Source of the DNA: Escherichia coli
GTDB lineage: Bacteria > Pseudomonadota > Gammaproteobacteria > Enterobacterales > Enterobacteriaceae
DNA length: 64,000 nucleotides
Reading direction: 5' to 3' (one strand)
Assembly (NCBI RefSeq): GCF_041248615.1
Contig: NZ_CP158426.1
Both the position numbers and the translations under genes were made by a program. Position 1 is the first letter of the stretch, and each line of letters opens with the position of its first letter. Positions 25,487-64,000 of this stretch are shown here, one piece after another. The notes under the pieces were generated by a model. That model saw nothing but the letters and a program-made list of their open reading frames with translations, was not told where the DNA came from and ran no database searches.

Positions 25487-25581
25487 TGGCGGAAGATCAC
25501 AGGAGTCGAACCTGCCCGGGACCGCTGGCGGCCCCAACTGGATTTGAAGTCCAGCCGCCTCACCGGAGACGACGATCTTCC
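25487..25581 (-). tRNA. selC: tRNA-Sec (selC)
   Basis: The reverse complement reads GGAAGATCGTCGTCTCCGGTGAGGCGGCTGGACTTCAAATCCAGTTGGGGCCGCCAGCGGTCCCGGGCAGGTTCGACTCCTGTGATCTTCCGCCA. This is the 95-nt E. coli selC sequence with anticodon UCA. Confidence 0.97.
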
Positions 25582-34344: not shown

Positions 34345-35211
34345 ATGAAAAAGCGTCGGAAGGAACCGGAAACGCTACGTGAACACTGTCGCCATATTTT
34401 TGGTGACGAGCCGCCAGTGCTCTGTGTATGGGAAACGGAATTTGATTACGCAGATGCCGAACTCAAGGCGCTGGCGGCTAAAGAGTGGCAACAGATAGGC
34501 GAATGGGATTTGAGTGCTTACTATGTACTCAATCTCGTTTATAACGAACCGATGCAAATAGAGCTGTTTCGCTATCTGTTTCCGCTATGCCTGGCGCAAT
34601 GGCATGAAACCGTTTTAGCTGGCGGTTATGGTGATCACTTCGAAGAATCCTTAATGAAGGCATTGCGTCGGCCCTATCTCTGGCAGGAGATGATGAATGC
34701 TTCCCAACGCCAGCAGGTACGGCAATTTTTACTGGAAACCGCGTTGCAGCGTATGGATAACGAGCGTGGTTTCAATAATGTTCTTTGCTGGCTGGCGGTG
34801 TTCAATACTCTGGGCGGGGCCGCGCCGTTAATTCATTCTCTCTGGTCACGCTGGTGGGTGCTGGATACGCCGGGAAAAGCGGTGTGTGCTATTCAGTATG
34901 CCGCGCATCTAATTTATCCCATAGAAGCCAATCCGTTATGGTCGCAAGAATGGTTAGGCTGGGGGCATCCATTAGGTCATAAAGATGGCTGGTCCTCTGA
35001 GAATCGCGCTTTTCTTCGCCAAATGTTAACACCTGAAATGATTGTGGCTGGCGTACAGGCAGCGGCTGAAATTCTGCGTGGTGAACCGGAAGGCGCAATG
35101 GCGGCGCGAATTGCGCAGGATGCGTATGAGGCAGTGGATATCATCACTATCCAGATTGAAGATTTACTGCGTGACTTGTCTTGTGATGAGTCTGGTCATG
35201 CGTTGGAGTAG
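34345..35211 (+). CDS. Hypothetical 288-aa Trp-rich cytoplasmic protein between gltS and recG
   Basis: The ATG is 2 nt after the gltS stop. The ORF is long, with backbone-like GC and no obvious Shine-Dalgarno sequence. Its 3' end overlaps the recG 3' end by 16 nt. I recognise no family. Confidence 0.55.
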   Translation: MKKRRKEPETLREHCRHIFGDEPPVLCVWETEFDYADAELKALAAKEWQQIGEWDLSAYYVLNLVYNEPMQIELFRYLFPLCLAQWHETVLAGGYGDHFEESLMKALRRPYLWQEMMNASQRQQVRQFLLETALQRMDNERGFNNVLCWLAVFNTLGGAAPLIHSLWSRWWVLDTPGKAVCAIQYAAHLIYPIEANPLWSQEWLGWGHPLGHKDGWSSENRAFLRQMLTPEMIVAGVQAAAEILRGEPEGAMAARIAQDAYEAVDIITIQIEDLLRDLSCDESGHALE

Positions 35212-44775: not shown

Positions 44776-44795
44776 AACTGTGTTTATATACAGTT
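44776..44795 (-). promoter_or_regulatory. LexA box of dinD
   Basis: The minus strand reads AACTGTATATAAACACAGTT (CTGT-N8-ACAG), 44 bp upstream of the dinD ATG. This matches the known dinD SOS box position. Confidence 0.85.
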
Positions 44796-44886: not shown

Positions 44887-44919
44887 AAAAATGCCGCTCT
44901 GTTTGAGTGGGCGGCATTT
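44887..44919 (-). terminator. Rho-independent terminator (native yicC terminator)
   Basis: The minus strand has AAATGCCGC-13 nt loop-GCGGCATTT followed by TT (T5 in total). It lies 35 nt downstream of the yicC-type stop codon at 44954-44956. Confidence 0.7.
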
Positions 44920-44953
44920 GTGAAGGCTGAAAAGGAAGAATTGGCGTTACGAG

Positions 44954-44974
44954 TTATTCAATATTCTGAATCTG
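44954..44974 (-). pseudogene. yicC: Displaced 3' tail of yicC (last six codons + stop) marking the left junction of the inserted element
   Basis: The minus frame reads ...AALKPILYK QIQNIE*. K-12 YicC ends ...REQIQNIE as I remember it. Similarity stops upstream of QIQNIE, so the identity (att core) is about 21 bp plus downstream sequence. Confidence 0.5.
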
Positions 44975-45035
44975 TTTGTAGAGTATTGGCTTCAATGCCG
45001 CATTGTAGCTGGTTTATTTCTAATGCGGTTTTTGA

Positions 45036-45057
45036 TTATGTACACCCTTATGTACAC
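45036..45057 (+). repeat. Tandem 10-bp direct repeat TTATGTACAC (12-bp period) ~60 bp inside the element's left end
   Basis: TTATGTACAC-cc-TTATGTACAC. Its position fits an arm-type Int/Xis binding site, but that is inference only. Confidence 0.4.
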
Positions 45058-45442: not shown

Positions 45443-45730
45443 TTACTGTCTCTGGCAATCTTTATCGCGATAACGCCTGAAGTACCCTCTCGCTTCCTCA
45501 TCCATACCAAGAGCCGAATGAGTCCGCTTAACTGCCTGTCTTAAATCTCCGAATCTGTCTGTAGTTGCTGGTGGGCGTGCCGCCTTACGGATACATTCAG
45601 AGCGTCTGTTTGCTGCATGTTCACGTTCTTTATCGCCATCTGCCAGCATCATGACTTCTGCCCATCGTGCGGCAGCTCTCCGGTATAGCCCTTTTGACTC
45701 CAGCTCTTCAGCTTTCCTGTCCCTTATCAT
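45443..45730 (-). CDS. PerC-family transcriptional activator
   Basis: 95 aa. MIRDRKAEELESKGLYRRAAARWAEVMMLADGDKEREHAANRRSECI... is the PerC/Pch signature (AEELE.KGLYRRAA.RW). Confidence 0.75.
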   Translation of the reverse strand: MIRDRKAEELESKGLYRRAAARWAEVMMLADGDKEREHAANRRSECIRKAARPPATTDRFGDLRQAVKRTHSALGMDEEARGYFRRYRDKDCQRQ

Positions 45731-46459: not shown

Positions 46460-47437
46460 TCAATCGCTCCCTTTCCGCCCTTCAGCTACAGGGTCGTTGT
46501 CGGCGATAACAAAACCTAAGTCCTGAGAGAATCTCTCTCGTGGGAATCCTTTAGCAGGTAAACCCATTGAATCATATCCACATCCGGGAACATTTGGTTT
46601 AGAGTCAATAAGGTCTGCAATTTGCCGAAGCCATGTTGATCCCGGACCAAGTCGTTTAACTAAGTACCAGATAATACAGATCGCGCTAAAAATCCTCTCG
46701 CAACTCTCTGGATGGAGATTAAGTCCGTCAAAGTATTCATTATCCGGTACTGGAACTCGGGGATGCTTTCTATTCCATATTCTGGAATGGTGAGCGCAAC
46801 GATTCCTTATGAGATTAAGGCACTTCAACCATTTTGCAAATGTCTGCTTATTATCAATGCCAAAACGACGTATAATTTTCCCCTGCATATGACCATTAAG
46901 CATCGCATAATATTTAGACATCTGACCAAAATCCCAGGTCTCCACCGCCACCCAAAATGGAATCTCCTTGCCTTGGCTTCGATGCCATTCAATACAGTCA
47001 TCTCTGCTTTCGTCTAATTTTACTTTTTGCTTATACACCCAATGCTCGAAGGCAGATGAGAATTTTGGATTAATGTATTTTGATGACATGTAGGCAAGTG
47101 GATCATTGCGACCAACCTCATGCGCGATGACTGAACGAACATGAATCTCTATTCTTTCGATAGCATCAATCATCAAAAGACGCAGTTTTTTGTCAAAAAG
47201 ATATAGATCGTACGTCTTCTCGAAACTGGTACCAGCAAGAAATCGGTCTGTTCTGTACGAAAGACCTTTATCTGTTGTCGCAATAATTCTTGATGGGTAC
47301 CAAAAACCTGACAATCGATAATATCCAACCTGCGACAGCTTACGTATCGCACGATTTCGATCATTGATAATCATGCCACGTTCAAGTAGCAATCCTAGCA
47401 ATTCGTGATAGTCCTTATGAGGCTTTGCGGCAATCAT
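46460..47437 (-). CDS. Abi_2 (AbiD/AbiF-like) abortive-infection family protein
   Basis: MIAAKPHKDYHELLGLLLERGMII...YYRLSGFWYP...FWVAVETWDFGQMSKYY...LNLIRNRCAHHSRIWNR carries the hallmark R/N..AHH.R.WN motif. The track ORF starts 15 codons upstream. Confidence 0.8.
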   Translation of the reverse strand: MIAAKPHKDYHELLGLLLERGMIINDRNRAIRKLSQVGYYRLSGFWYPSRIIATTDKGLSYRTDRFLAGTSFEKTYDLYLFDKKLRLLMIDAIERIEIHVRSVIAHEVGRNDPLAYMSSKYINPKFSSAFEHWVYKQKVKLDESRDDCIEWHRSQGKEIPFWVAVETWDFGQMSKYYAMLNGHMQGKIIRRFGIDNKQTFAKWLKCLNLIRNRCAHHSRIWNRKHPRVPVPDNEYFDGLNLHPESCERIFSAICIIWYLVKRLGPGSTWLRQIADLIDSKPNVPGCGYDSMGLPAKGFPRERFSQDLGFVIADNDPVAEGRKGSD

Positions 47438-48770: not shown

Positions 48771-50876
48771 TTATTGAGCTTCCTTTTGCGATGCTTGTGC
48801 TGCTGTGGTCAGTGATTGTGTGACCGTACTGATCGCTCTGTCATATGCTGTGCTACCTTTTGGCGTATTTGCCAGACGTAACAAGGCATTTCGTATAACA
48901 GGGCTTTCGTATGCCTTCGCTGCTCCGCCTACGGCACCAGCAGCAGGAACAACAAACGCAGCCGTTTTTAGCATCCCCGCTAATACTGCTGCGTTTATGA
49001 TGCCACCACCAACTAACAATCCATAAAGCTGCTGACCATTTAAGTTTTGAACGTTCGCTTTTGCCGCGTGTCTTGTATCGTTGAGGTATTTAATAACGCC
49101 GTCCAGTTCCTTTCCATGTACGCCTTTAAAGAAAGTTGCTGATTGCTTCCTGTTCCGGTGTAACGCATTAATAAACTTCTCAACACTGATATTTCCAGAC
49201 GGATCAGTCGCCTTATCTACAGCATTCTGAACTATAGCTGCTCGTGCGTTTTGCCTACCATTGTCATCCAGAAGCCTGTAAAGCTGAGAACGTTCTGATG
49301 GGCTTTGGCTAAAAACGAGTTTTGTTACATCCTCAGGCGTGGCCTTGCCGCTGGCTATTGCCTTTTGAACGCGCGTTCTTCCCATCATGTCATTGAATTT
49401 AGACCATGAGCGATCAACCCTTGCCATATTAATGGCTTCGTCTGCTCCAAGATTTTTGGCTACGGCTTTTTTCATATCCGCCGTATATGCCTTGTAGATA
49501 ATATCGCTGGCTTTCTGGAGCGTATCTTTATCAACAGTGTCAGATGACGCCATAAATCGCTTTCGAAGATCGGTTCTGTTTTCCCTCGCCAGACGCAGGT
49601 CATTTGGTCCGCTGGTGATATCGTCTTTAAATTGCTGCAAGACTTTTACCGCGGCTCTATCCTGAGATTTGCCCGGGCGGCTTAACACGGCAATCTGATT
49701 GTCGATAGCTTTTACCGTGTTTGAGAGATCGACAGGGGTATCCCCCATAGCGTCAATTATGCGGTTATATCGCTTTCCTGCTGCCTCAATGAATTTTTGT
49801 TGCCCTTTAGTCGCAGATTCATAAAGCTGTTTATCAGAAATGCCACCCAGACCATCGCTAAATGTTCTGACTAAATTTTCTCGTGCTTGTTGTTGATTCA
49901 GCCGATTCTTACCGGTTCCAAAAAAAGGAACTCTTTCGCCTAATGTCTGAGCCTGACTCTGCATAAAGGTTTTATCTTTCAACATGTCACTGGTCATTAA
50001 CGGCAGATTTCTTTCCGATGCAAAGTCGACAGCAGCCTTTGCTTCAGGCGACATATCACCACGAACAGCCCTCGAAACCGCACTCGCTGTATTTTCCAGC
50101 CCCTTACCAATACCACCAATGCCAGCAGAAATTACCGTTTGTAACGGATCAATATCTTCTCCACCAGCAAGGCTGGTGGCTCCCTGTAGTGCTAAATCTG
50201 TAGCTGCTGATTTCCCTATGGCCCCCAGCACCGTTCCGGCCCTGCCCGCTGGTGTAAACGCCAGCGCATTAGCCAGAAACGATGCCACGTCTTGCGGCGA
50301 TAAACCCGGCTTGTTCAGAGCATAATCACCGGATGGCAGGGAAACGATAGTGTTACCCTTCTCATCCTGCCTTAATTTCGCTCCCATGCTCTGAAGAATC
50401 TTTTCCTGAGATGCGTCAGAGCCGAAAAGTTGAGACCATCGAGCTTTTAGAGCATCCATGCTGAGTGAGGTTAACTCTGGGGCAAGGTCGACATTTTGCA
50501 GTCTCTCCATCTCTGGAGTCATTCGGCTTTCGCCTGTTATAGCATCGCGCATCGCAGCCCCAAGACTGGCTCCCTGTTCTGCTGAACGCTCAAGCCCCTC
50601 TCTTTGCTGAGTAGCTAACTTTGCATACCCTGACGCAAGAGAATTATCAGATGATGTATGTTGAATATTTTGAGTTGCTGATTGGTATCGGTCTATTTCA
50701 TTCGTTGATGGTAGTGGATAGGCAGCATAAAAAGCCTGCTTAGCCTGCTCTACACTTTCTCCGGCTTGCGGGGCAACGACTTCATTAAAGTATTGCTCCT
50801 GAGCCTGCGCTTTTTGTTCTGGTGCTAACGCCTGATACTGTGGAGAGGCGATAACATCTTTCCATGCTTTAGCCAT
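48771..50876 (-). CDS. P22 gp16-like ejection (DNA-transfer) protein candidate
   Basis: 701 aa and the last gene of the operon. It has ...KPGLSPQDVASFLANALAFTPAGRAGTVLGAIGKSAATDL... and a Gly/Ala-rich hydrophobic segment near the C-terminus (LLVGGGIINAAVLAGMLKTAAFVVPAAGAVGGAA). Position and size class match P22 gene 16. Confidence 0.5.
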   Translation of the reverse strand: MAKAWKDVIASPQYQALAPEQKAQAQEQYFNEVVAPQAGESVEQAKQAFYAAYPLPSTNEIDRYQSATQNIQHTSSDNSLASGYAKLATQQREGLERSAEQGASLGAAMRDAITGESRMTPEMERLQNVDLAPELTSLSMDALKARWSQLFGSDASQEKILQSMGAKLRQDEKGNTIVSLPSGDYALNKPGLSPQDVASFLANALAFTPAGRAGTVLGAIGKSAATDLALQGATSLAGGEDIDPLQTVISAGIGGIGKGLENTASAVSRAVRGDMSPEAKAAVDFASERNLPLMTSDMLKDKTFMQSQAQTLGERVPFFGTGKNRLNQQQARENLVRTFSDGLGGISDKQLYESATKGQQKFIEAAGKRYNRIIDAMGDTPVDLSNTVKAIDNQIAVLSRPGKSQDRAAVKVLQQFKDDITSGPNDLRLARENRTDLRKRFMASSDTVDKDTLQKASDIIYKAYTADMKKAVAKNLGADEAINMARVDRSWSKFNDMMGRTRVQKAIASGKATPEDVTKLVFSQSPSERSQLYRLLDDNGRQNARAAIVQNAVDKATDPSGNISVEKFINALHRNRKQSATFFKGVHGKELDGVIKYLNDTRHAAKANVQNLNGQQLYGLLVGGGIINAAVLAGMLKTAAFVVPAAGAVGGAAKAYESPVIRNALLRLANTPKGSTAYDRAISTVTQSLTTAAQASQKEAQ

Positions 50877-52297
50877 TAATCACCCCATAGTGAAGAAAAG
50901 TTACTGCTGGCTGCTGGCTGTGATACCTGCTCAGATTGCGGCAATGTCTGCGACGAAGAAGCAGTTCCTCTGTCAACTGCTGAAATAACCCGCAAAGCAT
51001 CATAAGTTCGACCAGAAGCAGCTTTCAGCGAATTGAACTGGTTTTCCATCTTCCGGCGCTTGGTATCAATGGTTTTTGTGGAGTCGCCAGGCTGAGGGAA
51101 ATACATTTGATAATATTTTGACATTTCAGCAGGTGCGATAGCTGCCCCTGTTTCCTGACGGAGTATTGCCATTATTGCGTCATTAGCATTAACAACGTAT
51201 TGCTGCTCTGCTGGGCTGAGCGTTAAGTTAGCCAGCGTCCCATTACCCAAAGCATTATTAATGATCGCCACTCGCTGTGGGCTAAGCTGGTCTTTCAGTG
51301 TATCTATTGAATCAAGAGCATCCCTAACCCTGTATGCAAATCCAGCAGCTTTTTTAGCCCCATCTGGCGACTTTTCCATGATCTTTTGGGCTGTTGGCAA
51401 AGCTATTGGACGAAACCCATCTCCAGATATTGGCTGGTTTAGTTTTCCCTGCTCTTCACTTCCGTCTGTGTAGTATTTTGTGACAGTGCCATCATCGTTT
51501 TCTCTAACACTCATTAATTTTTTGGCGTTTGTATTAATTCCAGCCGCTGCCGCAAATGCCGCCGCCCCCTCTGGATCCGCCTTTAACATTTGAGCGTACT
51601 GATTGTAATTCTGCATTGCTGCTGTTGGTGCATATGCTGACGTTAACGCATTTGCTCGGTTAATATCCTGCCCTCTCGCCTGAAGTGCTTCGCTGGCCTG
51701 ATTGCTGCGGATTGTCTCTGCCAACTTGCCACGTTCAATATCCCGACCTTCCATTTGATCTTTGATATCGAAATACTTCTCATGACCGAGAGAAAACAGT
51801 GCCATACTACCAGCAAGCCGCTGGAATCCCTGTGGATCATTAACATGCATTTCGGCAACAGACTCAGGAGAAATTCCCAGGCGACGCATTTCATCTTCGT
51901 TATCTGCTATGAATTTTCCAAATGCCCCAGTTCCGAGCGAAGATGCGATTTGAGCACTAGTCGCAAGATGACCAATAGAATTTCTCTGGTCGTCATCAAT
52001 AAAGCCCATCCCTTTCTGAACGCTTTCAAATTCTTCTGGATACTCAGAAATAAGACTGCGCATTTTGTTTCTGTCTCCAGACTCAAAAGCCCCGGCATAT
52101 GCTTTCTGAAACTCTGCTTTACGCTGTTGTTGACGTGCCTGCTGATTAATCTCAGCAACGCCTCTTAGCCCCTGTAGCGCCATTAAACCTACGTTTGGCT
52201 GCTGCTGATACTGCACAGGCTGAGGAACGGAAGAACGAGGAGCATTATCATTTTGCGGTGCCATGCTAGGCAGCCCGCCAAGTTGCCATGTCGCCAT
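50876..52297 (-). CDS. P22 gp20-like ejection protein candidate
   Basis: 473 aa (P22 gp20 is about 471 aa from memory). The N-terminus is Gln-rich. It overlaps both neighbours by 1 nt. Confidence 0.5.
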   Translation of the reverse strand: MATWQLGGLPSMAPQNDNAPRSSVPQPVQYQQQPNVGLMALQGLRGVAEINQQARQQQRKAEFQKAYAGAFESGDRNKMRSLISEYPEEFESVQKGMGFIDDDQRNSIGHLATSAQIASSLGTGAFGKFIADNEDEMRRLGISPESVAEMHVNDPQGFQRLAGSMALFSLGHEKYFDIKDQMEGRDIERGKLAETIRSNQASEALQARGQDINRANALTSAYAPTAAMQNYNQYAQMLKADPEGAAAFAAAAGINTNAKKLMSVRENDDGTVTKYYTDGSEEQGKLNQPISGDGFRPIALPTAQKIMEKSPDGAKKAAGFAYRVRDALDSIDTLKDQLSPQRVAIINNALGNGTLANLTLSPAEQQYVVNANDAIMAILRQETGAAIAPAEMSKYYQMYFPQPGDSTKTIDTKRRKMENQFNSLKAASGRTYDALRVISAVDRGTASSSQTLPQSEQVSQPAASSNFSSLWGD

Positions 52298-52974
52298 TAG
52301 AATCCAAGCCCCCCAACAAGACCAATAAGCCCACCACCAATAGCGCCGGCCGCAGTTCCTATTCCAGGAACAACGGAACCAAGTTGCGCACCCGCTAAAG
52401 CGCCTGATGCTGCCCCACCAATACCACGCGCAAGACTGGATGGCTGCTGCGCCTGACCTGCACGAATAGCGCCAAGCCCCTGCAAGAGTTGTCCGGTATT
52501 ATTGGCGTAGTTTTGCCCTGCCGTTGCCTGCCCTGATGCCGCATTCATCCCGACATTTAGCAGGTTTCCATAATTTTGCATTTGCCCACTAAGCCAATTG
52601 TTATAAAGCATGGGCGCAATGGAAGATAACTGGTTACTGGTAGCTGTTGAGCCAAGCCCCCCGGTAGCTTCTGCTGAGACAAGGTTCTGATAACGGGCCT
52701 GATCTGCCTGTGTTTTATATAAACCAGAACCAAAGAAATCATTCGCGGCTTTATTCTGCCCTTCCAGAGTCATCAGTCCTTGTAGTTGTTGTAAAGCAGG
52801 CAATCCGACTTCTGCATACGGCTTGAGATTATTCATCACCGTATTCCACTGCTCGCGCTGCAAATCAATTGCCTGCTGCTGGGCCTTCGCCTGAGCTTTA
52901 GAGGCACCACCATCACCGCCTTTTTCGTATACGGCACGATTGAGATGTTTATGAGCTATATGGGTAATTAACAT
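52297..52974 (-). CDS. P22 gp7-like ejection protein candidate
   Basis: 225 aa (P22 gp7 is about 229 aa from memory). ...YEKGGDGGASKAQAKAQQQAIDLQREQWN... and the Gly-rich C-terminal tail GIGTAAGAIGGGLIGLVGGLGF resemble gp7-type DNA-transfer proteins. Confidence 0.55.
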   Translation of the reverse strand: MLITHIAHKHLNRAVYEKGGDGGASKAQAKAQQQAIDLQREQWNTVMNNLKPYAEVGLPALQQLQGLMTLEGQNKAANDFFGSGLYKTQADQARYQNLVSAEATGGLGSTATSNQLSSIAPMLYNNWLSGQMQNYGNLLNVGMNAASGQATAGQNYANNTGQLLQGLGAIRAGQAQQPSSLARGIGGAASGALAGAQLGSVVPGIGTAAGAIGGGLIGLVGGLGF

Positions 52975-53429
52975 TCGCTGAATTCCTTATATTGTTGCCG
53001 AGTTAACTGATAAAGCGTTACGCCGACGGGTTTACCACATCTGATATAAGCATCATCAAGGTGACCAACACGGGTAGCGCCAAGCAAACGGATAATTGCC
53101 CGTCCGTATTTCGTGGTGTCAGGAACCATAGTGATGCTGTTAAGGAATGGTGAGTTTTCGAGAAGCCATTTGCAGAATAATCGATGCCCTTGCAGTGCAT
53201 ATTCACCACGGAATCCGGGGTCGTACACCGCATGGCATTCAACAATGCTATGCCAGAAGTTACGCACTTCATGAACGCCAGCCAGCACCAATCCTTCGTA
53301 GATGCCGAGATATACCGCATCAGGCTTGATGTAGTACGTGTGCCCCGGCTCAACAATATTTTCGGTATTGCCAGGATCGTTAAGAAAGGCCTGTAATCGC
53401 ACAGGGTTATCAATAAATTTTAGTTCCAT
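52968..53429 (-). CDS. 153-aa protein in the position of P22 gene 14
   Basis: It precedes the gp7/20/16-like genes with a 7-nt overlap. MELKFIDNPVRLQAFLNDPGNTENIVEPGHTYYIKPDAVYLGIYEG... looks like a small alpha/beta (acetyltransferase-like) protein. The assignment rests on synteny only. Confidence 0.4.
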   Translation of the reverse strand: MELKFIDNPVRLQAFLNDPGNTENIVEPGHTYYIKPDAVYLGIYEGLVLAGVHEVRNFWHSIVECHAVYDPGFRGEYALQGHRLFCKWLLENSPFLNSITMVPDTTKYGRAIIRLLGATRVGHLDDAYIRCGKPVGVTLYQLTRQQYKEFSEC

Positions 53430-53735: not shown

Positions 53736-54055
53736 CGTTCTGTGTGTCAGGTTTTGACAGGTTTTTTATGGACTCTAAAAACTATATTTATGGTGTCGCA
53801 TTACCCTTCACGGCAGGCGCTTTTCAGTTCTGCCCTTGCTTCTGGCTCCATTGGTAATTTGATTCGCGATCAGCTATGCGGATGGTTTGCTGAACAGGCA
53901 TAACAACTTCTCAGTGGCTGTTTTCTGAACTACGAAAATTTCGTAGTGCTCACTTTCAAAAACGTCACGCCCTTGTACACAGGATTTTACGAAAGTCTCG
54001 TAAAACACTCTCTGATGCCAGCCAGGTGTTGTGCGCATCAATTCAGTCACATTGT

Positions 54056-54166
54056 GTTGGTTCAAAATACCGTGTTGTTGGTTCAGTGTTGGTTCAATAA
54101 AAAGAATAAAATCCTTATAAAACAATACTCTTTACAAATTGAACCAACTGAACCAACTGAACCAAC
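54056..54166. repeat. Iteron cluster B: 3x GTTGGTTCA + AT-rich spacer + 3x TGAACCAAC (contiguous), mirror image of cluster A
   Basis: GTTGGTTCA occurs at 54056, 54077 and 54088. TGAACCAAC occurs at 54140, 54149 and 54158. The cluster ends 26 bp from the stop of the primase-helicase gene. Confidence 0.8.
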
Positions 54167-54191: not shown

Positions 54192-56951
54192 TCATTCTTC
54201 AGATGAGTTATAATCTCCTGGCTGGTAATTGAGTACATAAACGTTTATTTGTCGTCCCTGAATACGTGGTGATTTTCTTTGGTATCCACGACCGCTGTTT
54301 GGTGGGGTTAGCATCCCGGCTTTTTTCAACACTTCAGCAAACTGTTTTGCGTTGAAACCACATGCGATCTCCTTTTCAAATGTGGCCGGGAATGTGTAGA
54401 AAATCATTGGGCTTTCGTCATGTTCTCCACGCTGACGGTATCCGGCTAAATCTTTGATGGGCAAATCTGCCGGGCTGTATGGAAATGGTGCAAAACGGCT
54501 AAGCCCATAGGCATTAAGAAATGCCTCCGTTTGTTCAATAATCTGCTGATGCTCTTTGTTACCTGTGCCGAACTCGCGCAACCATGCGTTATAGCTGTGC
54601 TGTATCGCATCACGGCATGTCTGAGCATCCCAGCCTGTTACAACCTCGCCTAACAACAATGCGGCCTCCAGAATGGCAAATCGCGCGGCTACACGGTGAA
54701 CCTGCTCACCATAATCGGATGGGATCAGGCTTCTCCATCTGCTTTCGCAGTCACGAACGGTTTTAATAGCCTGTTGCTGGTGGTCTGCCAGCCATTTAAT
54801 CCACTCACGCCCGGACGCGCCGTGGTGATGCTGGTAAGCGTCTTTCAGTGCGTCTGCGTGCTGTTTTCCGTTCTGGTAATCGTGAAAGCGTACTGCTTTA
54901 CTCAACGGAATATTCAGCAGTCGCACCAGTTGCCCGGCTTTGGTTTTTCGCCCGGAAGTAGCGATAAATGTTTCTAAATCCATTTCTCCGGTGCTGATTG
55001 CCACTGTACGCCAGCGTTTTAGATCCCGGTTTCCACCATCTTTAGCGCCTTGCAGTTTCCCTACACCGTTAAATAACGCATAGGCAGACTGTGAAACGCT
55101 GACAGGATCAGCGCCCTGACCAACTTCATCAAGCGGCATTAGTCCGTCATTGTGGGCGGCGGCCTCATTTGCCAGCCCCAGCGCGGTTCCGTACCACGTC
55201 AGCCGCAGTAAATCAGGGTTGCCGTATAAGCTGCTCGCCACGTTTGCCGTGGTGGTCTTACCTGCGCTCGACTGCTCATAGAAATGAATGCCGAACCCGT
55301 CAGCGCCCACCAGCCCAATCAATGGCGCTGCCAGTGCTGCGCCGATCCCGGTCATCATTGAATAGTTACCAAAGGCCAGACGCGCCACGTTATCACGCCA
55401 GCTTTTCGCGCTCCCTGAGACGGTATATCCGGCTGCGGCTGAGCTTCTCCCGCTGAACAGCACAGGATTTTCAGGTGTTCCGATGATTTCCCCATCAGGC
55501 ATGATGTACGCTCCGCATTGCCAGCCAGTGGCATGAGCAACACGCCACAATTCACGAGAGCCACTGCGTTGTAGCCAGTCTGCCAGTATTGCTCTGAGGC
55601 TGCTTTTGGTCGTGACATTTACCCCACCAGCTTTAAGTGTGCGCCATCCTTCACGTTCACCAATATCAGCCAGTGGAATGGCAGCGGTTGTCGGCGTTTC
55701 AGAACCAAACGACAGCCAGCGAAGAATGAGATACTGGTCTTTATCGTCTCTGCCAGTACCGATAACGCTTAACGGAGAACATAACCAGCTTTCGTTATTG
55801 ATGATTTCTCCACTCTGGCTGTCAGCTCTCGGAGATACCCAATAAATACCATCCTCGCGGCTTTCTATTCTTGGTTTCAGTGGATCGGTATCCATAACCT
55901 TAAAATCGCTTCCCTCAATGGTCTGTGGCTCCTGTTTCACGCCATTACCCTGTGGTTGGTACATTGACTTATTGAACGCTTCTGTGGCGCATTTAATGCC
56001 GTGTTTTTGGTGGTAATCATTCCAGTCTGCTTTGTGATCTGTCGGGGGTAATGCCACCCATCCAGAAACAGATAAAGCTGCTTTTTCTGCTGCTATTCTC
56101 CCCGTGTTTTGTCTTCCTTCGCTGTGGTCGTTATCCGCAGCAATGATGATTTGTGCTGAAGGAAATTTATCCCGCAGTACCTGGGCGACATATAACAGGT
56201 TCCCGGCATCAATCGCCGCCACTGTCAGCGCCTCTGGACGAATTAAATGGGCAGATAATGCCGTTGCCAGCCCTTCTGCGATTAAGATGCTCTGTGTTGT
56301 TTCTGGTGCGTTTATGGCGTGATATGCCCCCCGCTTTGCTGAACCTGTCAGGAGTCTTTTTTCACCATGTGAGGTAATAGTCTGTGCTGCTGTGACTGCG
56401 CCGGATTTATCCACCAGCGCCAGCAACAGAGATCCATCGGGCAACACGGGGAATGTAAAATCACCTACCCCTTTCGCAACCAGATAATCAGATTTGCCGT
56501 TTACAGCCTTTCTGCGCATGTCATCAAACTGACGGGAAAACGTATCCCGTCTTTGTTGTTCGTCCTTCTCTGCCCTTTTCAGGCGCTCCTGTTCGCGTCG
56601 CTGGCGCTCGGTTTCCAGTTGTTCCCGTTTCTGGCTGGTGGCTTCTGGTGTTTCCGTTGTCCGGTAATCAATACCCAGAACATCAGCGGCAAGAAGCGCC
56701 GCCTCTGTTGTGTCGCAGTTATTTACGCGTTTAATTAAATCCAGCCCATCACCAGCGCCGCACTGATTACAGATGAAGCTACCGCGCCCGTTGTCATCGA
56801 ACCGGAATCGATCTTTGCCCCCACATGCAGGGCAGGGAGCATGACGGCGCGGAGAGTCAGGGACATTTATGTTCAGGCAGCCCAGCACATGAGGCCAGTT
56901 GTTTTCAGACGCACTGATAACCTGACGGATAAGATCAATGTTTCGCATCAC
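54192..56951 (-). CDS. P4 alpha-like primase-helicase (Zn-ribbon + Toprim + DUF927/SF3-type NTPase)
   Basis: 919 aa with Zn-binding CPACGGKDRFRFDD...FICNQCG. Toprim motifs are ILIAEGLATALS and IIIAADNDHSEGRQNTG. Walker A is YEQSSAGKTTT. Confidence 0.85.
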   Translation of the reverse strand: MMRNIDLIRQVISASENNWPHVLGCLNINVPDSPRRHAPCPACGGKDRFRFDDNGRGSFICNQCGAGDGLDLIKRVNNCDTTEAALLAADVLGIDYRTTETPEATSQKREQLETERQRREQERLKRAEKDEQQRRDTFSRQFDDMRRKAVNGKSDYLVAKGVGDFTFPVLPDGSLLLALVDKSGAVTAAQTITSHGEKRLLTGSAKRGAYHAINAPETTQSILIAEGLATALSAHLIRPEALTVAAIDAGNLLYVAQVLRDKFPSAQIIIAADNDHSEGRQNTGRIAAEKAALSVSGWVALPPTDHKADWNDYHQKHGIKCATEAFNKSMYQPQGNGVKQEPQTIEGSDFKVMDTDPLKPRIESREDGIYWVSPRADSQSGEIINNESWLCSPLSVIGTGRDDKDQYLILRWLSFGSETPTTAAIPLADIGEREGWRTLKAGGVNVTTKSSLRAILADWLQRSGSRELWRVAHATGWQCGAYIMPDGEIIGTPENPVLFSGRSSAAAGYTVSGSAKSWRDNVARLAFGNYSMMTGIGAALAAPLIGLVGADGFGIHFYEQSSAGKTTTANVASSLYGNPDLLRLTWYGTALGLANEAAAHNDGLMPLDEVGQGADPVSVSQSAYALFNGVGKLQGAKDGGNRDLKRWRTVAISTGEMDLETFIATSGRKTKAGQLVRLLNIPLSKAVRFHDYQNGKQHADALKDAYQHHHGASGREWIKWLADHQQQAIKTVRDCESRWRSLIPSDYGEQVHRVAARFAILEAALLLGEVVTGWDAQTCRDAIQHSYNAWLREFGTGNKEHQQIIEQTEAFLNAYGLSRFAPFPYSPADLPIKDLAGYRQRGEHDESPMIFYTFPATFEKEIACGFNAKQFAEVLKKAGMLTPPNSGRGYQRKSPRIQGRQINVYVLNYQPGDYNSSEE

Positions 56952-58727: not shown

Positions 58728-58918
58728 TTTTCACCCCCAAGAATTACCAGCTCTGCACGGGCATCGTTAACCAAAGATGAGCACGCTTTAATCGCATCCA
58801 CGACATCAGTAGCGTCCATTTCTTCAGCCGAAAGACTGACAGCAACCAGGACAGCCGCTGCTTGCTCGATTAATTGAAGTGCGGACGTAAGGCGAGGGGT
58901 ATTAATTGAGTTATTCAT
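58724..58918 (-). CDS. Small helical protein (64 aa)
   Basis: ...LTSALQLIEQAAAVLVAVSLSAEEMDATDVVDAIKACSSLVNDARAELVILGGEK. The C-terminus L..GGE resembles that of the 72-aa protein. Confidence 0.45.
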   Translation of the reverse strand: MNNSINTPRLTSALQLIEQAAAVLVAVSLSAEEMDATDVVDAIKACSSLVNDARAELVILGGEK

Positions 58919-59129
58919 TGGTTGCCCCCGTTTTTACTGGCATTTCGCCACCTTCCAGCAGGAAATGAACGTCACGAACGGCGAGATCCAATATCGCGAG
59001 TAACGCCTTCAGTTTTTCGTCTCGTGAGGGAGAGTTGCTCACCAGAATGTCATTAATCACTTCTGTCAGTGTGATGATCTGGCTTGTGCGTTCGAGGGGG
59101 TCCATATGCACATCGTAGGTTTTAATCAT
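58911..59129 (-). CDS. Small helical protein (72 aa)
   Basis: MIKTYDVHMDPLERTSQIITLTEVINDILVSNSPSRDEKLKALLAILDLAVRDVHFLLEGGE... Its ATG overlaps the stop of the Icd-like gene (CATGATTAA). It is in the same frame as the long 342-aa track ORF. Confidence 0.45.
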   Translation of the reverse strand: MIKTYDVHMDPLERTSQIITLTEVINDILVSNSPSRDEKLKALLAILDLAVRDVHFLLEGGEMPVKTGATNE

Positions 59130-59316
59130 GTGCCACCTCCATGCGGATACGACCAGCAAAAAAGCAGACGTGATCGCGCACCAGAGAACGGCGAGCATCG
59201 CGTTCAGACTCGGCAGCAATATGATGAATTTTGGCGGTAATTGTCGGGCAATCGCGGCGAACTGCGGCGATAATCCAGATAAATTGCGGTTTTTGGGTAG
59301 GGGTAGTAGCCAGCAT
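59122..59316 (-). CDS. Icd-like (P4-type host cell-division inhibitor-like) protein
   Basis: 64 aa. MLATTPTQKPQFIWIIAAVRRDCPTITAKIHHIAAESERDARRSLVRDHVCFFAGRI matches the KPQF/Y.W...A..R...A..E.EARR.L....FAGR pattern I remember for Icd-like proteins of P4-like prophages. There is a strong SD (AAGGAGG) 7 nt upstream. Confidence 0.6.
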   Translation of the reverse strand: MLATTPTQKPQFIWIIAAVRRDCPTITAKIHHIAAESERDARRSLVRDHVCFFAGRIRMEVAHD

Positions 59317-59379
59317 GTGGCAGCCTCCTTGATTGATGGTTTATAGCCACCGCCGGAGGTCCTAAGCTCGCTGGCGGTG

Positions 59380-59450
59380 GACTGTACAGGGTTAGGACTA
59401 CTGGCAATCAAGGAAACCAGCCTGACCGAAGTCAGCCCCATACAGCCCAC
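59380..59450 (-). ncRNA. Candidate P4 CI-like immunity RNA (seqB-bearing segment); boundaries approximate
   Basis: The minus transcript contains GGGGCUGACUUCGGUCAGGCUGGUUUCCUUGAUUGCCAGUAGUCCUAACCC. The motifs GAUUGCC and GUCCUAA are complementary to an upstream site (59514-59536) and a downstream site (59359-59365). CCUUGAUUG is complementary to the SD region of the Icd-like gene. Confidence 0.35.
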
Positions 59451-59480
59451 CATTGATAAGGTGTGCGTGTGCGCCGATAC

Positions 59481-59501
59481 AAAAAAAGACGCTGGCGCGT
59501 C
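59481..59501 (-). terminator. Short GC hairpin + U7 inside the leader (candidate immunity-controlled terminator)
   Basis: The minus strand reads GACGC-gcca-GCGTC-TTTTTTT. It lies between the seqA-like and seqB-like elements. Confidence 0.4.
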
Positions 59502-59932
59502 ATGTATCGCCTCGATTGCCTGCGGGGTCCTAATCCCGGCACCCGTTTTATGAGGTGCCTTATAACCATAAACCGTGTTGCCGCATAACGGCAAGCTCTT
59601 TTTTATGGACTCCGAAAACTCACTATTGGAAGAACCAGATGCACAATACATCGCGCTCATTTCGTTAACGTCACGCGCATGGACGAAGGTTTTTGTGGAG
59701 TCACTACGCGAGAAGAGAAAGCCATCTACGACCAGAAATTCTCTGGCGCAGCCGCTGACCTTCTCAACGCTAACACCATCGACCGTAATTTCTGACATGG
59801 TTAAGGCATCCGCTCCTACCACCAGCAAATGACAAACTTTGCTTGTATCTGCTGTATTAATGCCTGACTTTGCTGTCATATTGCTGGATTTTGGCGACAT
59901 ACCAGCCAGTGAAAATATCTTCTTCTGGACGG

Positions 59933-60115
59933 TTAGCATTTGTTAACCTCCGCGAACTCCTTCATGAAGCGCGCCAGCGGTTGTACGCATGGCGATTGAT
60001 ACCCGTCGCGATAAAACGTCACTCGGTTGTGAGACACGCTTTCGACAGTAACGAGTGCTCCGTGGGCATCTTTGTAGCGTTTTTGTGGTTGTGGTATTCC
60101 TGTTGGCTTAGACAT
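59933..60115 (-). CDS. DUF4222-like small protein (60 aa)
   Basis: MSKPTGIPQPQKRYKDAHGALVTVESVSHNRVTFYRDGYQSPCVQPLARFMKEFAEVNKC shows the pattern KD..G..V.V......V.F.RDGY......P...F.K.F. Its ATG overlaps the upstream stop (AATGTCTAA). Confidence 0.5.
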   Translation of the reverse strand: MSKPTGIPQPQKRYKDAHGALVTVESVSHNRVTFYRDGYQSPCVQPLARFMKEFAEVNKC

Positions 60116-60941
60116 TGAGCGCCTCCAGACGCTTGGCGAGCCAGCGTTGCGACAGGTGGGTGAGTTCTCCTTTGCGCTGCTCATATTCCATGCCCATATC
60201 AATTAACGTGATATTGGTGCTTTCGAGATATGAGAGGTGCTCAAGCTGTTCTGCGTTCATATGGTCGCGAGGTTCGCCAGAATAGCCATTTATCCGCGCC
60301 CACTGCTTAGCAGTTAGCCCTCCAAGAACGATACGAGAAATCATATTGCTCTCGTTTGTGTAGTGGTGTTGCTGCGTCGTTTTCCCCTGCTCGGCACGGG
60401 CCATATTCAGCGCATCGCACATTGGCTTAAAGTTGTTTGCGGCACTGATACGGGCTTTTAGCTGGCGACGATAGCGGGCGGCGATTTCAGGCACGCTACG
60501 CTGTAATTCTTCCTCGCACTGGATGAAATAACGACGGATAGCGCGACCCTGATCATTGCGTTCGATCATTGCCAGTTCTTTCGCCATTCCGACACTTAAC
60601 AGATAGTCTTTGCCGGGTCTGCCAGACTGCTTAATCTTGCTGTAAGCCGCGCCATTCGGGCTTTTCCCCAAATTTGGGGAAATTGTTTTATGGACTGAGT
60701 AATCGTGCCCAATGGTGAAGTCATATTCAGAGATGCGATCAGTGATCCATGTAGAGAAGTCTTTTCCCACGCCCAACGCTTTGTGTAACGCTTTTGCGCT
60801 AACAATATTGGTTTCACGCCCACCGATGTGACCAGGAATAACCGGGACAATTGCGGCAAATTCATTACCGTTAATTGTGCCCAGAGAGGCGTTCAGATGA
60901 GGGGCGGCCTCAGAAATTAATCTGCTTTTTTCGATGTTCAT
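60108..60941 (-). CDS. Phage antirepressor-type protein (AntA/Bro-N-like N-terminus + KilAC-like C-terminus)
   Basis: 277 aa, with ...NIVSAKALHKALGVGKDFSTWITDRISEYDFTIGHDY... and ...DYLLSVGMAKELAMIERNDQGRAIRRYFIQCEEEL. Confidence 0.7.
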   Translation of the reverse strand: MNIEKSRLISEAAPHLNASLGTINGNEFAAIVPVIPGHIGGRETNIVSAKALHKALGVGKDFSTWITDRISEYDFTIGHDYSVHKTISPNLGKSPNGAAYSKIKQSGRPGKDYLLSVGMAKELAMIERNDQGRAIRRYFIQCEEELQRSVPEIAARYRRQLKARISAANNFKPMCDALNMARAEQGKTTQQHHYTNESNMISRIVLGGLTAKQWARINGYSGEPRDHMNAEQLEHLSYLESTNITLIDMGMEYEQRKGELTHLSQRWLAKRLEALNV

Positions 60942-60953
60942 TTTCAGTCTCCG

Positions 60954-61385
60954 TTAGGCGGCGTTAAACGCGTCCGGGTAGAGTTTCAGAATGTCGGCAA
61001 TTTCCTGCTGAGAAAGTCCGTTGTGATCATTTATGTTCGCAAGATGGTTAACATGAGTGATCACTTTCAGAACATCACCACGGCAGGAGAAACGGTAGCG
61101 AAGGTGTGTTCCGATACCATCAGGATTCTTTTCGTCGATACGCTCCAGAGTGATTCCAAGCTGGCGTTCTAACTCTGTTGCATAGTTACGACCAGAAGAC
61201 AGACGGCAGTAGCGAAGAATGTCATTTTCTGTCCATCCCTCTATACCAGTACGCAGCATATAGACTCGGGCACGATGCTTTTTCGGTGTGCGCTTTGGTG
61301 CTTGAAGGGATTTTGTAAGGGGCGTAATATCAGATACGCGAATATCTGAATTAGCCGCCTGTAATGGGCGGTTTTTCTTTTCCAT
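60954..61385 (-). CDS. Hypothetical protein (143 aa)
   Basis: Overlaps the AlpA-like gene stop by 1 nt. The N-terminus is basic. No family recognised. Confidence 0.5.
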   Translation of the reverse strand: MEKKNRPLQAANSDIRVSDITPLTKSLQAPKRTPKKHRARVYMLRTGIEGWTENDILRYCRLSSGRNYATELERQLGITLERIDEKNPDGIGTHLRYRFSCRGDVLKVITHVNHLANINDHNGLSQQEIADILKLYPDAFNAA

Positions 61386-61603
61386 CAGGCCACCTTCCCG
61401 CGGCGTTCTGCCAGCCAGTTATTAATTTCCACCGCATCAAACGCAGTCACGTTATCTGTTAGCTTCACTGGGCGTGGAAGAGTGCCATTTTTAACCCATC
61501 TATCAATAGTAGGCAGTGAAACACCTAGCAATTCCGGCATGCGAAAGCGACGGATGTATCCAGTTGTTGGGATAGCTGATGATGCTGGCTTGTGTGCTGT
61601 CAT
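61385..61603 (-). CDS. AlpA/Vis-like excisionase-type regulator
   Basis: 72 aa. ...YIRRFRMPELLGVSLPTIDRWVKNGTLPRPVKLTDNVTAFDAVEINNWL is the AlpA family signature. Confidence 0.8.
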   Translation of the reverse strand: MTAHKPASSAIPTTGYIRRFRMPELLGVSLPTIDRWVKNGTLPRPVKLTDNVTAFDAVEINNWLAERRGKVA

Positions 61604-62074: not shown

Positions 62075-62725
62075 TTAGTCGAGATCGTGGACAGCTAATA
62101 AAGCCCGTGAGATTTTTTCTAGGAATGTGGCTTTTGCTATTCCTTTATGGGATATCCCTTCATCCTTGATTAAGGTTTCTATGTCACGGTATATAGCTGT
62201 GCGATTAGGTTTCCCATTTTGGATGTAGGAAGATGAGCCTGATTTTTTTATCAGCAGATGTACTATCAACCCCATCATTTTCATTGTCCCGTTTTCCTCA
62301 TCCTGCTTTCTATGCTGCCCACGTCCGCTGCGGTTGGTTTCTTTGATGTAGTTTACTAACTGGAGTCCTCCAAGGTTTCGGGCTTTTTCTTCCCAGCCCT
62401 TGGTGCCACGCAAATCATCAATCGCTTCTGATATTTTCTGAACAATTATTTCTGGTGTATTTGTGTCAATAAATGGGTAAGAAGCTAAGAAAATATCAAG
62501 GGCATGGCAAGGCTCGTCTTTACTAGTTTTTTCACCTCTGTACACCTTGATAGCTCTGGCAAGATGAGTTCTGACAAAATCGACATATTCGAAATTTTCC
62601 TCAGGCACATCGCTAATGCGCATAGATGGGTTTAGGCCAGCCAAGGCCACAGCCATTTCATGAGGGGTAATCGATACAGATGAACAAAGCCGTTCGATTG
62701 GCGATTTTCTCAAGATGTTGTTCAC
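62075..62725 (-). CDS. Hypothetical 216-aa protein coupled to the integrase gene
   Basis: The GTG start overlaps the integrase stop (GTGA). GC is lower than in neighbouring genes. No family recognised. The alternative start is Met24. Confidence 0.5.
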   Translation of the reverse strand: MNNILRKSPIERLCSSVSITPHEMAVALAGLNPSMRISDVPEENFEYVDFVRTHLARAIKVYRGEKTSKDEPCHALDIFLASYPFIDTNTPEIIVQKISEAIDDLRGTKGWEEKARNLGGLQLVNYIKETNRSGRGQHRKQDEENGTMKMMGLIVHLLIKKSGSSSYIQNGKPNRTAIYRDIETLIKDEGISHKGIAKATFLEKISRALLAVHDLD

Positions 62726-63990
62726 ATTTGCCTCCGGGCTTTATCGAATGGCGTTACGTTGTAGTCTTTCCCGCTTTCCAGTGCCACCAGCAGATCAGCC
62801 CACTGTGCCAGCGCAGCTTTACGCTCATCAAAATACTGATGGCGGTTATAAATCCCCTCCACACCCTTAATGCGATGATTGAGGCATCGTTCCGCTACGA
62901 CAGGATCAACACCCAATGCTGCTAAATGAGTACGTGCGGTACGCCGGAAGTCGTGAATCGTGAAATTAGGCACATCCGGCATTTCGGCGCGAACCTTAGC
63001 CAGTGCTACGGGTAAAGTGCTTTCCTGAATATGTGGGATCATTCTGTTTTGCATCTTCCTGGCTGGAAGCACCCATGCGCTATTACATGAAAAGGTGTGT
63101 AGCTCTCTCAACCATTCAACGGCTGGGGAAGGTAGAGGTATATCAATAGGGTCTCCGTTTTTGCTGCGTTCTTCCGGCAAATGCCATACCGCACCATCTA
63201 AATCAAACTCTTCCCATCGTGCGGCGCATAACTCCATCTTACGAACGCATAGTGCCAGCAATAGCTTAAATGTCAGTTCGTTCTGGCGGCTGAATCCTTT
63301 TGCGGTGCGCATAGCTTCGAATAGCCTGATAAGCTCATCGCGAGTTAGCCAACGGTCGCGGGAAACCTCTTTACCACCAGCATCAGATACTTCAAACGCT
63401 GAACAAGGGTTTATCTCCAGAGCGTGGCGTTTTATCCCATAGTCAAAGATACGGCGTGTCCAGCGTAATACATCTGTTGCTATCGTTGGTGCTCCTCGGT
63501 CAACGATACCTTTCAACATGTCGTCAATGTGGCGTGGCTTAACGTCCTCCACCTTCATATGCCCAATGCAGGGGTTAATATCCTTATCAATTCTCCGGCG
63601 AAGGATATCGGGATGTTTCCATCTTGGAAGTATCTGGCGCTCGAAGTATTCGGCGGCCAGATCTGAAACGCGCATGGCGTTTTTCTCAGCCTCCATTTTT
63701 GCCAGTGCTTCAGCTTTTCGTTCCTGTTTCTCTGCTGCTACGTCATAGCCAAGAGCAACTCTGGCTGACAGCTCTTTTGCTGTTTCTCTGGCTTTTGATA
63801 GTGACAGTTCGGAGTAAGAGCCTATAACCATAGCCCGCTGCTTTCCTGCGAGCTTATAGCGGAATCGCCAGAACGGGACTGTGTAGTTTTTTGGGTAGCA
63901 AATATAAAGGCCGTTGCCGTCTGCCTTGCCATCAAATCTGTCTCCCGCCTTTATCCATGCGCGGATCTGCATATCTGTGAGTTTTGGCAT
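62722..63990 (-). CDS. P4-type tyrosine integrase of the yicC-inserted element
   Basis: 422 aa starting MPKLTDMQIRAWIKAGDRFDGKADGNGLYICYPKNYTVPFWRFRYKLAGKQR... The catalytic region is HDFRRTARTHLAALG...LNHRIKGVEGIYNRHQY. It starts 10 bp from the window edge. Confidence 0.9.
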   Translation of the reverse strand: MPKLTDMQIRAWIKAGDRFDGKADGNGLYICYPKNYTVPFWRFRYKLAGKQRAMVIGSYSELSLSKARETAKELSARVALGYDVAAEKQERKAEALAKMEAEKNAMRVSDLAAEYFERQILPRWKHPDILRRRIDKDINPCIGHMKVEDVKPRHIDDMLKGIVDRGAPTIATDVLRWTRRIFDYGIKRHALEINPCSAFEVSDAGGKEVSRDRWLTRDELIRLFEAMRTAKGFSRQNELTFKLLLALCVRKMELCAARWEEFDLDGAVWHLPEERSKNGDPIDIPLPSPAVEWLRELHTFSCNSAWVLPARKMQNRMIPHIQESTLPVALAKVRAEMPDVPNFTIHDFRRTARTHLAALGVDPVVAERCLNHRIKGVEGIYNRHQYFDERKAALAQWADLLVALESGKDYNVTPFDKARRQM

Positions 63991-64000
63991 TGCGAATACC

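Follow-up and report, generated by a model that had tools for sequence, protein, structure and literature searches.

A 19.2-kb element in the 3′ end of Escherichia coli yicC and its probable nature as a PICI with an EcCIMP1-type backbone

The yicC-dinD locus and its two junctions

The window analysed here, a stretch of 64,000 nucleotides of Escherichia coli DNA, carries in its right-hand part an integrated element, the body of which extends on the minus strand from 44975 to the end of the window at 64000 and on to the window-equivalent position 64199 (annotation of NZ_LT599825.1). Elsewhere in the window, a second island (1-25581) is located at the tRNA-Sec gene (selC, 25487-25581). It has its own integrase (24003-25187) and contains an autotransporter (19313-22810), a TonB-dependent receptor and many copies or fragments of IS3, IS66 and IS1. 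Between gltS and recG an annotated hypothetical gene of 288 aa (34345-35211, plus strand) overlaps the 3′ end of recG, and in Z1323CEC0013 (L004) and UMNK88 (L086) the gap between gltS and recG is only about 170 bp long.

At the left junction of the element, beside dinD, the minus strand at 44954-45004 translates as NAALKPILYKQIQNIE and terminates with the stop codon 44954-44956. The match to the C-terminus of K-12 YicC (...LIEQMREQIQNIE and stop; ...EQMREQIQNIE and stop) is confined to the six terminal residues and the stop, and the codons upstream of this QIQNIE-ending tail are not related to yicC. Both the tail and the unrelated codons had been described in the original prediction, and both are present at these positions. 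The tail includes the attL core TTATTCAATATTCTGAATCTG (44954-44974, minus strand), which represents the displaced last six codons of yicC together with the stop. Because the exchange falls inside this 21-bp core, the attL tail is a hybrid, with a stop-proximal part of bacterial origin and a distal part that comes from the element. The claim that the native tail was displaced to the dinD junction is therefore right for the stop-proximal part, but not for the distal, element-derived part.

Downstream of this stop a terminator-like hairpin (44889-44919, minus strand) was recognised by its fold and by its near-identity to the K-12 sequence downstream of yicC. The hairpin starts 34 nt past the stop and has a 9-bp stem and a long loop, followed by a U-run; its folding energy is -12.4 kcal/mol, with a z-score of -1.6. 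The hairpin stretch, the LexA box (44778-44793) and dinD are collinear with the yicC-dinD spacer of K-12. Because of this collinearity and near-identity the hairpin is regarded as the native yicC downstream hairpin, which after integration is placed between the orphaned yicC tail and dinD. In a simple terminator scan of the attL side this hairpin was not flagged, because its loop exceeds 8 nt, and the palindrome of the dinD LexA box was the sole call. A good terminator had been expected about 35 nt past the stop; the position is correct, but the hairpin can be considered a moderate terminator only. On the other side of the core, 61 nt inside the element, two tandem copies of TTATGTACAC with a period of 12 (45036-45045 and 45048-45057, in total 45036-45057, plus strand) represent the arm-type repeats of the P′ arm.

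The closest public record to the window is that of E. coli NRZ14408 (NZ_LT599825.1, record positions 96001-160000). Only two bases differ in the 23 kb compared, at 44963 and 50787, where the window has A and the record G. The first of these is position 10 of the core and alters which positions are informative for mapping the crossover. The region past the end of the window (beyond 64000) was read from this record and is given in window-equivalent coordinates. The order in the record, from left to right, is ligB, yicG, dinD, a 19-kb block ending in int, intact yicC, rph and pyrE; its annotation of this region lists individual genes only, without an element feature. Intact yicC occupies 64179-65042, and its last 21 bp form a further copy of the core. 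This copy is attR (64179-64199), which is 19,225 bp away from the attL core and identical to it at 19 of 21 positions. The reconstituted YicC has 287 aa, with one substitution in comparison to K-12 and an identical C-terminus, and the core differences among the att sites are all synonymous.

With this extension, intact yicC was seen to adjoin the integrase and to end in the repeat of the core, as the original prediction required. Past 64000 there are only the P arm, attR and yicC; the integrase had been rightly expected next to the reconstituted yicC, but it is encoded inside the window (62722-63990) and not beyond it. In comparison with the yicC-dinD region of K-12, the K-12-like flanks change to element DNA exactly at the core. 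The presence of the same core at both junctions, with flanks switching there from host to element DNA, places the element in the 3′ end of yicC, as had been proposed.

Gene content of the element

Measured from core to core (44954 to window-equivalent 64199) the element has a length of 19,246 bp. The backbone genes are all encoded on the minus strand and comprise int, a 216-aa ORF, alpA, a 143-aa ORF, the AntA, DUF4222 and Ash genes, small ORFs and the primase gene. After the primase follow, in this order, the putative iteron origin, the P22 gp14, gp7, gp20 and gp16-like genes, AbiD and PerC.

The tyrosine integrase, IntyicC (62722-63990, minus strand), shows the Pfam domains Arm-DNA-bind_3, Phage_int_M and Phage_integrase (PF13356, PF22022, PF00589). 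The alpA gene (61385-61603, minus strand; Phage_AlpA, PF05930, above cut-off) encodes a regulator and putative excisionase; we infer that AlpA acts either as excisionase or as activator. Between int and alpA a 216-aa ORF without family match is located (62075-62725, minus strand). In four relatives (L084, L085, L086, L088) other ORFs of 281-321 aa are found at this place, which looks like a variable cargo slot. The zone of Bro/antirepressor genes (58911-60941, minus strand) includes the Ash-family, DUF4222 and AntA/AntB genes, as assigned by Pfam.

Inside the ash gene two RNAs are found on the minus strand, a C4 antisense RNA (59370-59457; RF01695, 80.2 bits) and an isrK-type RNA (59482-59558; RF01394, 63 bits), both with scores over the gathering score. 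This pair suggests an RNA immunity module of the P4 CI/seqA type. Such C4/isrK-detectable, CI-like RNAs are one of the properties that the element has in common with satellite P4, the others being the arm-binding P4-type integrase architecture, an Ash-family homologue and a Toprim primase, and on these grounds the element could be assigned to the P4 family of satellites instead of the PICIs. We give this assignment hardly any credence. Among the 20 predicted proteins scanned there is no match to the Psu family in Pfam and nothing is annotated as Sid or Delta, although of these only the absence of Psu is firm, because Pfam may lack models for Sid and Delta. Furthermore, the late genes are P22-like and not P2-related, the proven helper of the closest relative EcCIMP1 is likewise P22-like and not P2-like, and the att site differs from that of P4. 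In part, the distinction between PICI and P4 family is a question of naming, since these satellite classes share modules.

The gene for the primase/replicase (54192-56948, minus strand) contains Zn-ribbon, Toprim_3 and DUF927 domains. Just downstream of its stop a putative replication origin was found (54054-54166), in which three GTTGGTTCA iterons and three inverted ones flank an AT-rich spacer; the repeats were grouped into the families D1 and D2 and the inverted pairs I3-I9. The position of this putative origin agrees with the published layout of PICI origins.

The P22-type genes (48771-53429, minus strand) code for a gp16-like injection protein, gp20, gp7 and gp14/DUF2824 (Pfam Inj_translocase, P22_gp7, DUF2824). 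Nucleotide matches of this block were obtained only with P22-like podoviruses, including Kapi1. Among the relatives the block is variable or truncated; it is absent or fragmentary in L003 and frameshifted in L084. This is consistent with the late zone of a PICI, in which late genes were captured from a P22-like helper. The attL end is occupied by accessory genes, namely the gene for a PerC-family regulator (45443-45730, minus strand; PF06069, E 2.6e-33) and an AbiD/Abi_2 abortive-infection gene (46460-47437, minus strand; PF07751; PADLOC AbiD, E 7e-58), which represents defence cargo and is missing from the relatives L003, L084, L085 and L086. No suggestive Pfam match was obtained for a packaging-redirection gene (rppA or terS), and several small ORFs are without family assignment.

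The four P22-type genes (gp14, gp7, gp20 and the gp16-like gene) together with the AntA antirepressor might also be explained as what is left of a decayed P22-like prophage at yicC, with no satellite involved. We consider this very improbable, because neither in the annotation nor in the Pfam scans of the element could genes be found for capsid (coat), portal, terminase, tail or tailspike, lysis or CI/Cro-type immunity. In addition, the order int-alpA-Bro-pri-ori of the backbone is the layout of PICIs, with 97.8% identity to EcCIMP1, and a 12-kb relative without ejection genes has the same ends. As this relative keeps the ends without the ejection genes, these genes are cargo.

Judged by the properties known for PICIs (Fillol-Salom 2018; Williams-lab zone model), int, alpA and pri of the element are on one strand (minus) in the order int-alpA-Bro zone-pri, and iterons flank an AT-rich stretch downstream of pri, the putative origin being recognised by its sequence only. 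The length of 19,246 bp compares with an expected length of about 10-20 kb, and there are four captured ejection genes without a full structural and lysis set. It is therefore very probable that the element is a 19.2-kb Gram-negative PICI of the EcCIMP1 backbone family, which with its own tyrosine integrase integrated into the last 21 bp of yicC. Its helper would be a P22-like phage.

The att sites, the point of exchange and deletions in attL

The attL site of the window reads gag-TTATTCAATATTCTGAATCTG-tttgtagag, attR of NZ_LT599825.1 reads agc-TTATTCGATATTCTGGATCTG-ctcgcgcat, and attB of K-12 reads gag-TTATTCGATGTTCTGAATCTG-ctcgcgcat. A fourth site, attP (agc-TTATTCGATATTCTGAATCTG-tttgtagag), is present on the circular record NZ_CP148430.1 of 12,152 bp from strain Z1323CEC0013. 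An attB of 100 bp was reconstructed from the left side of attL (in the allele of the public record) and the right side of attR. It matches at 100 of 100 positions in at least 25 listed genomes with an empty site, for example Nissle 1917 and ATCC 11775, and the yicC-dinD junction is uninterrupted in 4192 of 5426 complete E. coli genomes. Since this reconstruction has exact counterparts in empty genomes, the insertion was conservative and precise. Because, in addition, the 21-bp core recurs at the far junction, the match to the yicC tail is not due to chance. The comparison of the att sites also agrees with the earlier proposal that the element carries a replacement tail and leaves the native tail on the dinD side.

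On this basis the following course of integration is proposed. The attP site would carry a near-copy of the yicC tail CAGATTCAGAATATCGAATAA (QIQNIE and stop), followed by the element's own terminator. Recombination within the core would fuse the body of yicC to the element-borne tail, and YicC would remain full length with an unchanged C-terminus. A terminator of the element is detected, on both strands, between the new yicC stop and int (GCCCG...CGGGC, then T6), and it would shield int from read-through out of yicC. The native hairpin and the stop-proximal part of the native tail would be left orphaned beside dinD, which is the feature first seen at this locus. Four TGTACA-type repeats are located in the P arm beside int (window-equivalent 64019-64070) and two in the P′ arm, and the integrase would bind to the core as well as to these arm sites. 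Excision should still be possible for this copy.

The circular record NZ_CP148430.1 (L003) represents a shorter relative of the element, in which P arm, core and P′ arm are contiguous. The circle was assembled as a "plasmid", and a copy of it is also found integrated at yicC in the same strain (L004, 21055-33227). The two differ at core position 7, at position 22, which is just past the core, and at two other bases. The primase is intact in the circle, and in the integrated copy a stop is annotated in the primase gene, which is probably one of the two other differences. As these are four independent positions, the circle is ruled out as a simple excision product of the integrated copy as assembled. 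The differences may represent a polishing artefact or a second allele. According to a related reading, a 12-kb circle with an intact primase would be a plasmid-like state, which is said to be lacking in PICIs. A search of PLSDB for further circular copies found only this same single record.

Bacterial and element alleles differ at the core positions 7, 10, 16 and 22. In the public record of NRZ14408 and in E686 and PKF11, attL has the bacterial and attR the element alleles at positions 7 and 10, and the reverse pattern is seen at positions 16 and 22, where these are informative. Judged from these three genomes, the exchange would fall between core positions 10 and 16 (TTCTG). The A at position 10 in the window itself widens this interval to positions 8-15. 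Other genomes do not fit this mapping cleanly: in 042, ECONIH1, FDAARGOS_1261 and 1296KP the attL side shows G16, and the junctions of Z1323CEC0013 look attB-like at positions 7 and 22. Because of these misfits, an exchange point at the level of single nucleotides is not claimed.

Deletions in the core came to light when a strict search pattern for it failed to recognise attL of three relatives. The deletions seen on the dinD side have lengths of 2 bp (E686), 4, 5, 6 (UMNK88, 042), 9 and 11 bp, and all are within positions 2-14 of the core, where the crossover maps (L084 21055, L086 21054, L088 and L090-L097, equivalent to 44954-44974 of the window). Among 59 sampled chromosomal attL sites of E. 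coli, 23 are full length, 12 are 2 bp short and nine are 4-6 bp short. The remaining 15 can be aligned only from inside the core; of the three that were read, two had deletions, of 9 and 11 bp, and the third was a junction between tandem elements. The 2-bp loss recurs in the published far junctions of the O145 and Citrobacter PICIs EcCIRM13514 and CfCIP10159 as well as in Zobellella maritima (L034). The core on the yicC side is full length in every copy examined. It is tempting, if rather doubtful at present, to regard attL of this PICI family as a hotspot for deletions of 2-11 bp at the crossover segment of the core. If the deletions were scars of abortive integrase action or selected lock-in mutations, most resident copies would be immobilised, and the "attB drift" published for yicC would be an artefact of attL deletions. 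If confirmed, such micro-deletions would bear on the fixation of satellites in genomes and on the reading of identity blocks by automated att-site mappers, for example TIGER and Islander.

In E. coli G749 (L096, locus positions about 100-160) the P′ arm is joined leftward to DNA unrelated to the dinD flank, with the junction TTACTCGAT-ATTGAATCTG. It appears that two different elements, both with yicC as their target, are arranged here in tandem.

Integrase relatives and comparison with known systems

The P arm of this element type is found at yicC in 377 of the 5426 complete E. coli genomes (about 7%), and its P′ arm beside dinD in 155 complete E. coli genomes. In other species, where a threshold of at least 40% identity was used, relatives of the integrase (40-92% identity) are encoded at 52 loci, with a distance of about 190 bp from the end of a full-length yicC that lies upstream in the same orientation. 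These loci belong to Enterobacterales, Aeromonas, Tolumonas, Zobellella, Vogesella, Azonexus, Propionivibrio and Steroidobacteraceae. The contig L006 (CACSKA010000004.1) is labelled Chryseobacterium sp. 18061; its YicC is 92% identical to that of E. coli and its integrase 90% identical to that of the window, which suggests that the contig is of enterobacterial origin and the assembly mislabelled or contaminated.

The enterobacterial loci and most of the other gamma- and betaproteobacterial ones share this layout of the P arm, in which the stop is followed by a spacer, a terminator and four repeats. In the P arms of the Steroidobacteraceae, which are the most distant loci, the terminator hairpin is not evident and the repeats are kept. 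The motif of the P-arm repeats varies by lineage (GTGTACA, GTACCA, GTGCACA, GTAGCT). A fuzzy search for the far junction at the 52 loci gave mostly chance matches, which were accepted only when arm-type repeats were present about 60 bp inside. In the eight loci where the far junction could be reached in this way (L034, L050, L052, L053, L055, L059, L060, L063), a tandem pair of the motif of the respective lineage is found about 55-75 bp inside the displaced yicC tail. Position and number of the repeats are thus conserved, while the motif covaries with the integrase lineage on both arms. Because the motif changes together with the integrase, there is good comparative evidence that the tandem repeat TTATGTACAC is an arm-type site. 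That the repeat about 60 bp inside might have this function had been suggested at the outset, and besides the covariation the arm-binding domain of the integrase and the four copies in the P arm argue for it.

The original prediction had called the 3′ end of yicC an unusual att site, being a protein gene. This does not hold, as yicC-dinD has already been published as a site of PICIs and of mobilizable islands. EcCIRM13514 was described at yicC-dinD and CfCIP10159 at yicC-yicG (Fillol-Salom et al. 2018, Table S1), and their junction and att sequences are given in the Williams-lab supplements (PMC10111431). Elements at yicC_dinD were also reported in a study of E. coli O157. The yicC element of strain 042 does not appear to be the published EcCIO42, which is marked at locus 1749 with the AlpA CBG34595. 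Both the target site and the class of element are already in the literature, and the element itself is an ordinary one of its kind. As an annotation, its description defines exact ends, core, arm sites, a putative origin and the cargo (AbiD, PerC and the P22 ejection genes) for a PICI.

Mobilizable islands of the MGIVflInd1 type and the SGI1-like IEEcoMOD1 have been published as using the 3′ end of yicC, and integrases specific for this gene have been described in such islands. Sharing the same end of the same gene, the element could be imagined as a conjugatively mobilised island of this kind. However, MGIVflInd1/MGIVmi1 and IEEcoMOD1 are mobilised by conjugative elements (SXT/R391, IncC) and have oriT mimics or mob/tra genes and RdfM, whereas no relaxase, mobI, traG/traN, mpsA or rdfM-like genes were found here in the Pfam scans and in the annotation of the record. 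Phage-satellite hallmarks are present instead, and we regard a conjugatively mobilised island as very improbable.

It is textbook knowledge that integrating elements can replace the 3′ end of a gene. In icd, the elements e14 and phage 21 provide a substitute 3′ end which keeps the gene functional, and the displaced native end is found at the far junction. In comparison with the element in yicC, the gene is another one, the replaced segment is much longer and the integrases are different.

Clear homology exists between the P arm described here and that of CfCIP10159 (GCTATCAG, terminator, ttgttatcatgggctatcat, caacaaagcgc), and perC is present in both elements. EcCIRM13514 and CfCIP10159 differ from the element of the window in their backbones and cargo. 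The identity blocks published for the att sites of these two, GAGCAGATTCAA and ATCGAGTAAG, each span one side of the 21-bp core only, because the far junctions of both elements carry the 2-bp deletion.

The closest known system is EcCIMP1, a PICI of E. coli MP1, for which induction and mobilisation by vB_EcoP_Kapi1, a P22-like phage, were demonstrated in experiments (PMC11773190). Both elements share 9.3 kb at 97.8% identity, and several of their proteins have identical accessions. The order of alpA, the 143-aa ORF, AntA, DUF4222, Ash, small ORFs, the Toprim/DUF927 primase, DUF2824, gp7, gp20 and PerC is the same, and the sizes are similar (19,963 bp in EcCIMP1, 19,246 bp here). The integrase of EcCIMP1 is another one, and its insertion site is tRNA-Thr, between proA and yagU (PMC11773190), whereas the element of the window has a yicC-specific integrase and att module, other cargo at the attL end (AbiD) and another gp16-like gene. 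From the combination of an EcCIMP1 backbone with a yicC integrase we therefore conclude that the element very probably is a PICI in which the EcCIMP1 backbone is coupled to an integration module specific for yicC. This backbone is thus associated with at least two different integration modules, which direct it to tRNA-Thr and to yicC, respectively.
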